Shown piece after piece: positions 8,305-9,047 of a DNA stretch of 49,854 nt. Below the pieces are notes generated by a model. The model was not told the DNA's origin, searched no databases, and saw only the letters and a program-made list of their open reading frames with translations. Position 1 is the stretch's first letter. Every line of letters starts with the position of its first letter. Both the position numbers and the translations under genes were made by a program. The DNA is from a virus (Duplodnaviria; Heunggongvirae; Uroviricota; Caudoviricetes): IMG/VR virus record IMGVR_UViG_2529293239_000010, one strand, 5' to 3'.

Positions 8305-9047
8305 ATGAAAAACATTGCGGCAGTTGGGGTTCTTGAACGTATTCGCAGACTTGCACCACAGGGGTCGGTTCCACCGTACCGGACGGTGGAGGAGTGGCGG
8401 GAATGGCAACTTGCTGAAGGACGAAAACGCAGCGAGGAGATTAACCGCCAGAATCGCCAGTTGCGGGTGGAAAAAATCCTGAATCGTTCGGGCATCCAGC
8501 CTCTGCACAGCAAATGCTCGTTTGCAAATTATCAGGTGCAGAACGACGGGCAAAAATACGCGCTGAGCCAGGCCAAATCCATAGCTGACGAACTGATGAC
8601 CGGGTGCACGAATTTTGTGTTCAGCGGTAAAACCGGCACCGGGAAAAATCACCTTGCAGCGGCGATGGGCAACCGGCTGATGGTGAAGGGGCGCAGCGTG
8701 ATTATCGTCACCGTGTCTGACGTCATGAGCGTGTTGCATGACAGCTACGACAACGGCAAATCCGGGGAAAAATACAGGAGCTTTGCGGGGTTGATTTGCT
8801 GGTCCTGGATGAAATAGGCGTTCAGCGGGAGACGAAAAACGAGCAGGTGGTATTGCACCAGATAATTGATCGCCGGACAGCATCACTGTGCAGTGTCGGG
8901 ATGTTAACAAACCTGAATCATGCCGCAATGAGTACGCTTCTTGGTGAGAGGATTATGGACCGCATGACCATGAACGGTGGTCGATGGGTGACGTTTAACT
9001 GGGATAGCTGGCGTCCAAATGTCAGCAATATGAGGGTTGTGAAGTAA
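8305..9047 (+). pseudogene. DnaC-like helicase loader (AAA+ ATPase), reading frame broken by -1 frameshift in an A5 tract
   Basis: Walker A GKTGTGKNHLA in the first ORF (8305..8817) and Walker B LLVLDEIG in the second (8796..9047); frames rejoin if the A5 run at 8768..8772 is A6, giving ...SGEKIQELCGVDLLVLDEIG. Confidence 0.7.

Follow-up and report, generated by a model that had tools for sequence, protein, structure and literature searches.

Gene Content of the Replication Module

The window, by which we mean the whole 49,854-nt stretch of IMG/VR record IMGVR_UViG_2529293239_000010 and to which all coordinates refer, contains a gene for a DnaC-type helicase loader that is divided between two reading frames (Table 1). 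The gene directly follows a putative replication initiator, which is intact and 99.7% identical to its full-length ortholog, and it lies downstream of cro/ydaS- and ydaT-like genes, as annotated in E. coli relatives. The first-pass annotation of this DNA had described a frameshifted prophage gene for a DnaC-like AAA+ helicase loader, with its Walker A and Walker B halves in different frames and an A5 run at 8768..8772; all of these points hold, down to the coordinates of the run, in the open reading frames and in the alignments given below.

Table 1. Features of the window discussed in the text
Feature	Position	Strand	Remarks
Prophage integrase	1..1131	-	Left end; ompW/yciC adjoin in the identical CCH060 contig
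Putative replication initiator	7321..8298	+	HTH_36, weak DnaD_N match (Pfam); annotated start 7336, 320 aa
DnaC-type helicase-loader pseudogene, whole	8305..9047	+	743 nt; intact ortholog 747 nt / 248 aa
Loader 5' fragment ORF	8305..8817	+	170 aa = 156 native + 14 out-of-frame residues YRSFAGLICWSWMK, then TAG
Loader deletion junction AAAAA/T	8768..8773	+	Ancestral A5T5 tract has lost four T between 8772 and 8774
Loader 3' remainder	8772..9047	+	Frame one base behind; encodes (I)QELCGVDLLVLDEIG...
Mechanical ORF in loader 3' half	8796..9047	+	83 aa, TTG start at 8796
DNA methyltransferase (N6_N4_Mtase), frameshifted	14784..15831		T7 to T8 near 15700..15707
IS3-family element	~21351..22664		Flanked by the Rz lysis gene and the sce7726-like gene; IS629-type ends TGAACCGCCCCGGG

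The 170-aa reading frame ends ...DNGKSGEK-YRSFAGLICWSWMK-stop, with its TAG at 8815..8817, and carries the Walker A motif GKTGTGKN as residues 108–115, aligned with K112 of DnaC. The Walker B motif LLVLDEIG and the remaining AAA+ domain are readable solely in the other frame, from 8772. That frame, one base behind, stays open from 8742 onward and reads ...(I)QELCGVDLLVLDEIGVQRETKNEQ... to 9047, so that the 3' remainder encodes Walker B, sensor I, the arginine finger, and sensor II. When the intact ortholog was aligned to the window by tblastn, its residues 1–157 matched in frame 1 and residues 158–248 in frame 3 (combined E 1.5e-142), and thus the two halves are no chance juxtaposition.

The intact ortholog matches the Pfam family IstB_IS21 (PF01695) with E 7e-19 and E. 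coli DnaC (PDB 6QEL chain G) with E 2.4e-74 over residues 2–242, which agrees with the loader assignment. In DnaC the motifs are Walker A K112, Walker B E170, sensor I N203, arginine coupler R216, arginine finger R220, and sensor II R237 (PMC8213410), and we transferred them to the window by alignment to E. coli DnaC and this motif list. The helicase-binding domain, Walker A/B (DLLVLDEIG), sensors I/II, and arginine finger are equivalently placed in DnaC (PDB 6QEL/6QEM) and in the intact ortholog. Unlike E. coli DnaC, the loader is a phage-borne paralog of 248 aa placed after a phage initiator gene, and the window polypeptide stops at about the equivalent of DnaC residue 155, with Walker B and everything beyond it lost. 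Residues 1–156 are identical to the intact ortholog, and the 170-aa product thus retains the N-terminal helicase (DnaB)-binding domain together with the Walker A P-loop (GxxGxGK). Walker B (hhhhDE), which shares one polypeptide with Walker A in the intact ortholog, is separated from it in the window, as are the sensor I Asn, the arginine coupler and finger, and the sensor II Arg, all of them encoded 3' of the frameshift. Against IstB_IS21, the 170-aa product aligns to profile positions 39–151 of 238 only (E 4.7e-10).

DnaC-type loaders are a standard lambdoid replication module, known from Rac and from Sp4, Sp10, and Sp12 of E. coli O157 Sakai (PMC2669165). The same order, an initiator and then a DnaC-like loader, is found in these prophages and in the Stx phages POCJ13 and 75/02, where the gene is named “DnaC-like helicase loader”; these lambdoid relatives share with the window a loader module downstream of cro/ydaS-ydaT and a lambda-like genome. 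In contrast to the window gene, their loaders are single intact ORFs. The GenBank phage relatives among the records listed, all of them intact, have only 79–82% DNA identity to the window gene and are uninformative on the deleted allele. WP_000788950.1 is the intact form of exactly this loader, with 100% nucleotide identity outside the gap described below.

Nature of the Lesion

Nucleotide alignment to the intact gene of E. coli 4/1-1 (WP_000788950.1, “ATP-binding protein,” 248 aa) reveals a single 4-nt gap, the other 743 positions being all identical. The intact sequence GAAAAATTTTTACAG has become GAAAAATACAG in the window by the loss of TTTT from an A5T5 tract; at the site itself, intact GGGGAAAAATTTTTACAGG is aligned with GGGGAAAAA----TACAGG. 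The native junction peptide of the intact loader, SGEKFLQELCGVDLL, is aligned with SEEQLLNDLSNVDLL of E. coli DnaC. With 8305..9047 as the query, megablast detected the gene in 1404 of the 5426 complete E. coli genomes searched, and the best matches, at 99.5% identity, span 747 nt rather than 743.

The alignment with its single gap identifies the event as the loss of TTTT and not of one A. The lesion had earlier been read as a 1-bp deletion in the A tract, to be repaired by adding one A to give a protein of about 248 aa; instead, four bases are missing from the adjoining T5 run. The one-A repair does restore the frame, and to that extent the earlier reconstruction was correct, but it yields 247 aa, not 248, and the sequence SGEKIQELCG in place of the native SGEKFLQELCG, one residue short at the junction with I where the native protein has FL. 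A plausible single-base repair made from sequence alone can thus restore a frame and yet be the wrong reconstruction. Nor are two ORFs the native state, as had been allowed for: each of about 80 E. coli matches listed has a single “ATP-binding protein” feature, and in both annotated regions fetched the intact loader is one 747-nt CDS. The comparison with orthologous prophages, which had been called for on the basis of the sequence, thus finds an intact single ORF as the norm.

Distribution of the Deleted Allele

The deleted junction was found in none of the 1175 complete E. coli genomes that matched an 80-nt junction query, the best identity being 95.2% (80/84). In a scan of IMG/VR with a pattern that permitted 0–8 bases between A5 and ACAGG, TTTTT was present in 99 of 100 contigs and a single T in one; the same pattern gave TTTTT in 24/24 metagenome contigs, and no gap of any other length within this range was found in either collection. 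The lone viral contig with a single T shows 100% identity to window 6691..9407 and is probably the same genome as the window. Among the GTDB species representatives, neither loader allele was found.

The exact 170-aa product was retrieved from an assembly collection (NCBI, Logan, and ENA) in 187 index blocks on 149 contigs, the longest being a chromosome of 4.66 Mb. In one source this protein carries the name “DNA replication protein dnaC [Shigella flexneri CCH060]” (EIQ13181.1). We fetched eight independent loci; the 1-T junction was present in 8/8, all in the same prophage, and ompW/yciC adjoin this prophage in the four that reach the left flank. These loci differ from the window by 0–20 substitutions, of which the scattered ones number 0–2 (per 10–18 kb). 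Two of the fetched contigs have additional clustered differences, and the cluster looks like recombination or paralog mis-assembly.

CCH060 is the archetype strain for S. flexneri serotype 6 (PMC10732043), and its contig AKMW01000036 has 100% identity to window 1..18817. On the basis of this one identical contig and the one named protein record EIQ13181.1, the window prophage most likely comes from S. flexneri serotype 6, either from CCH060 itself or from a nearly identical relative. The ompW prophage is without discussion in the CCH060 and serotype 6 papers. In all collections scanned, the junction GGGGAAAAATACAGG occurs only in assemblies of this lineage and could serve as a marker of the serotype 6 ompW prophage.

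State of the Rest of the Prophage

From two related E. coli prophages, 56 annotated genes were translated, and their proteins were searched against the window. Matches were found for 54 of the 56, and 52 of these 54 are full length in one frame, the two others being the loader and the DNA methyltransferase. Among the full-length single-frame genes are those for the integrase, excisionase, exonuclease, initiator, Q-like antiterminator, holin, lysozyme, Rz, terminase, portal, protease, and capsid, as well as all tail genes. Since the other compared genes are full length, the element is not broadly degraded, and this possibility is mostly rejected by the same 52/54 count. The earlier description of a cryptic, replication-defective prophage thus stands in one part: a replication-specific defect is predicted from the sequence of the loader, whereas the compared genes of morphogenesis, lysis, integration, and regulation are full length. 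What we observe is an almost complete prophage in early decay, and “cryptic” overstates its condition.

The second frameshifted gene, the methyltransferase, has T7 in E. coli Res13-Lact-EA06-22 and T8 in the window, which leaves an ORF of 330 aa instead of 349. The T8 allele is common to 5/5 serotype 6 lineage loci covering the tract, and in one isolate (L105) the gene is split further, into 104 and 142 aa. The IS3-family element encodes orfA (108 aa, HTH_Tnp_1) and orfB (296 aa, rve) and is missing from an E. coli relative (L002). Two lineage contigs, L109 and L106, open with a 126-nt stretch that breaks collinearity with the prophage. In L109 this stretch abuts window 8266, in the initiator 3' end just upstream of the loader, and matches the IS at 21352..21477; in L106 it abuts window 311 and interrupts the integrase. 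These breaks suggest further isolate-specific IS hits in the prophage. A near-complete prophage with few point lesions and an IS insertion has its counterparts in the “defective prophage pool” of O157 (PMC2669165) and in the pseudogene and IS decay of Shigella. In Sp7 of O157 Sakai a replication gene is likewise in fragments (PMC2669165); unlike in the O157 defective prophages, the lesion described here consists of one 4-bp deletion within a DnaC-type loader gene.

Several other features of the window were recorded. A homolog of the epoxyqueuosine reductase QueH is encoded at 10434..11120. Three tRNA genes found by ARAGORN at 15884..16133, downstream of the methyltransferase gene as in Stx-type lambdoid phages, have a CAT anticodon, Arg-TCG, and Arg-TCT; the CAT tRNA is called Met by ARAGORN, and the corresponding gene is tRNA-Ile in the RefSeq relative. 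They are followed by a SASA/NanS-like esterase (17109..18962). Between the lysis and terminase modules there is a convergent overlapping pair, 22745..23365 (+) and 23307..24374 (-), whose relatives in RefSeq are named “sce7726 family protein” for the first gene and “beta family protein” for the second (Pfam Beta_protein, E 8e-56); the pair is accessory cargo and is placed like a moron. At 48693..48872 the tail-fiber assembly gene recurs as a partial second copy that matches residues 132–191 with 80% identity. It lies downstream of the intact tfa and of a methyltransferase gene at 47890..48555 and looks like a remnant of tail-fiber module exchange or an invertible-segment relic. The window itself begins at the integrase gene's stop-codon end (position 1) and ends at the ATG of a Rha-family regulator (49297..49854, minus strand; position 49854). 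With such gene-exact ends, the window looks like a provirus call made from gene boundaries and not from att to att, and on the right the prophage may in fact extend past position 49854.

Alternative Explanations

The first-pass annotation had offered three options for the split gene, a genuine inactivating mutation, a sequencing or assembly error, and a phase-variable homopolymer, and it is the first of them that the evidence backs: the deletion is real, occurred once, and is clonally inherited. An artefact would mean that the true genome has an intact A5T5 and that the four missing bases are an error of one assembly. Homopolymers are indeed error-prone, a second tract of the window, the methyltransferase T8, is likewise off by one, and the deleted allele is absent from the complete E. 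coli genomes in RefSeq; this absence, however, follows from the confinement of the allele to the S. flexneri serotype 6 lineage. Against an error stand the identical truncated product on the 149 contigs, which come from different groups and range from 2012 to recent SRR runs, and the same junction in every locus retrieved, so that the lesion is not private to one assembly. The loss of four out of five bases is, moreover, atypical for a homopolymer miscall. An assembly error is thus effectively excluded, and we regard an artefact as extremely unlikely. Equally negligible in our estimate is a reversible change in A/T-run length that toggles the loader on and off, even though the lesion sits within a homopolymeric tract. 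In the collections scanned there are only two tract states, T5 and T1, without intermediates; all 1175 matching complete E. coli genomes are without the deleted junction, and the 1-T state is confined to one clonal lineage. The leftover A5 and T1 fall far short of the lengths known for slippage-prone contingency tracts, and reversion would require a +4 or +1 event. With only two states, one per lineage, and short leftover tracts, phase variation is unsupported.

Other explanations would leave the gene with an active product. Low-level -1 slippage of tRNA-Lys on A_AAA (8769..8772) would give a 247-aa loader with …SGEKIQELCG… at a reduced dose, as re-reading base 8772 yields an uninterrupted protein of this length, and A-rich lysine codons are intrinsically somewhat slippery. 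However, an X_XXY_YYZ heptamer is absent: the 0 frame reads UCC GGG GAA AAA UAC (G_GAA_AAA_UAC), to which neither G_GAA_AAA nor A_AAA_UAC fits. No stimulatory structure was found in the 88 nt of 8773..8860 (z = -0.67, with 49/200 shuffles folding as well), and a programmed -1 frameshift was rejected on these two grounds. The two-frame arrangement is not conserved, the orthologs being single-frame ORFs, and a site that arose only with a recent deletion and that no ortholog shares cannot be a selected recoding signal; the slippage product would also be the one that is a residue short, with I replacing FL. We consider slippage of this kind very unlikely; if it did occur, it could, as a weaker variant of the active-product explanation, supply enough full-length loader for prophage replication. 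Independent translation of the 3' half is also unlikely, as its first in-frame start, the TTG at 8796, is poorly placed: the only Shine-Dalgarno-like site, AGGAG at 8776..8780, is 15 nt upstream, which leaves no usable ribosome-binding site, and the product would start within the Walker B strand. Finally, the 170-aa fragment might have been kept for an action of its own on host DnaB, as an ATP-independent loader or activator, or as an inhibitor affecting superinfecting phages or host replication. In vitro, the isolated helicase-binding domain of DnaC stimulates DnaB unwinding at the fork nearly like the full-length protein (Arias-Palomo 2013, as cited in PMC8213410), and the fragment may therefore not be wholly inert; its coding sequence has, in addition, no further mutations in the 8 lineage loci. 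The lineage is, however, so clonal, as judged by its scattered SNPs, that the missing further mutations are uninformative on selection. Half an AAA+ fold with a 14-residue nonsense tail is likely to be unstable, and the IS-associated contig break right beside the module in some isolates (L109) argues against selection to keep the fragment. Retention for such a new function seems very unlikely to us. We hold it similarly unlikely that S. flexneri serotype 6 has kept the 170-aa product to modulate the host replicative helicase without ATPase activity; such a modulator, if it exists, could act as a lambda-P-like loader or could sequester DnaB, with effects on superinfecting phages or replication restart.

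Predicted Functional Consequences

Very probably, the locus is a loader pseudogene of a lambdoid prophage beside ompW, produced by one TTTT deletion that became clonally fixed, and the prophage is predicted from its sequence to be handicapped in replication. According to this explanation, the window is a lambdoid prophage of about 50 kb integrated beside ompW, in which one mutational event removed TTTT from the A5T5 tract of the loader gene. Translation then leaves the native frame past Lys156, gains 14 unrelated residues, and stops. The 170-aa product retains the DnaB-binding N-terminal domain and the Walker A loop but is cut off before Walker B, the two sensors, and the arginine coupler and finger. 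In DnaC, E170, N203, Arg216, Arg220, and R237 each support ATPase activity, and ATPase mutants are poor activators of DnaB (PMC8213410). By analogy with this biochemistry, the 170-aa product would be unable to hydrolyze ATP or to assemble a loader oligomer, since with the motifs from Walker B onward missing it should not form the ATP-dependent oligomer that DnaC-type loaders use. After induction, the prophage would then be unable to load DnaB at its own origin, and it would likely replicate poorly or not at all unless the host DnaC or the loader of another prophage substitutes. Defective prophages of O157 are complemented in trans (PMC2669165).

For a Shigella prophage, a replication gene disrupted by a frameshift is nothing unusual, and the truncated product is already in GenBank. 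The additions made here are solely the corrected lesion (4 bp, in the T tract), its restriction to one lineage, and the exclusion of an artefact and of phase variation, and beyond annotation their significance is small. The locus should be annotated as one frameshifted DnaC-type loader pseudogene with a 4-bp deletion as the lesion, and not as a 170-aa “DNA replication protein dnaC” followed by an unannotated fragment. For the biology of the phage, the lineage-fixed loader pseudogene probably cripples autonomous replication, and the resulting prediction is that the otherwise complete prophage would replicate poorly after induction unless helped in trans. Such decay of the loader fits the general prophage and genome decay of Shigella.
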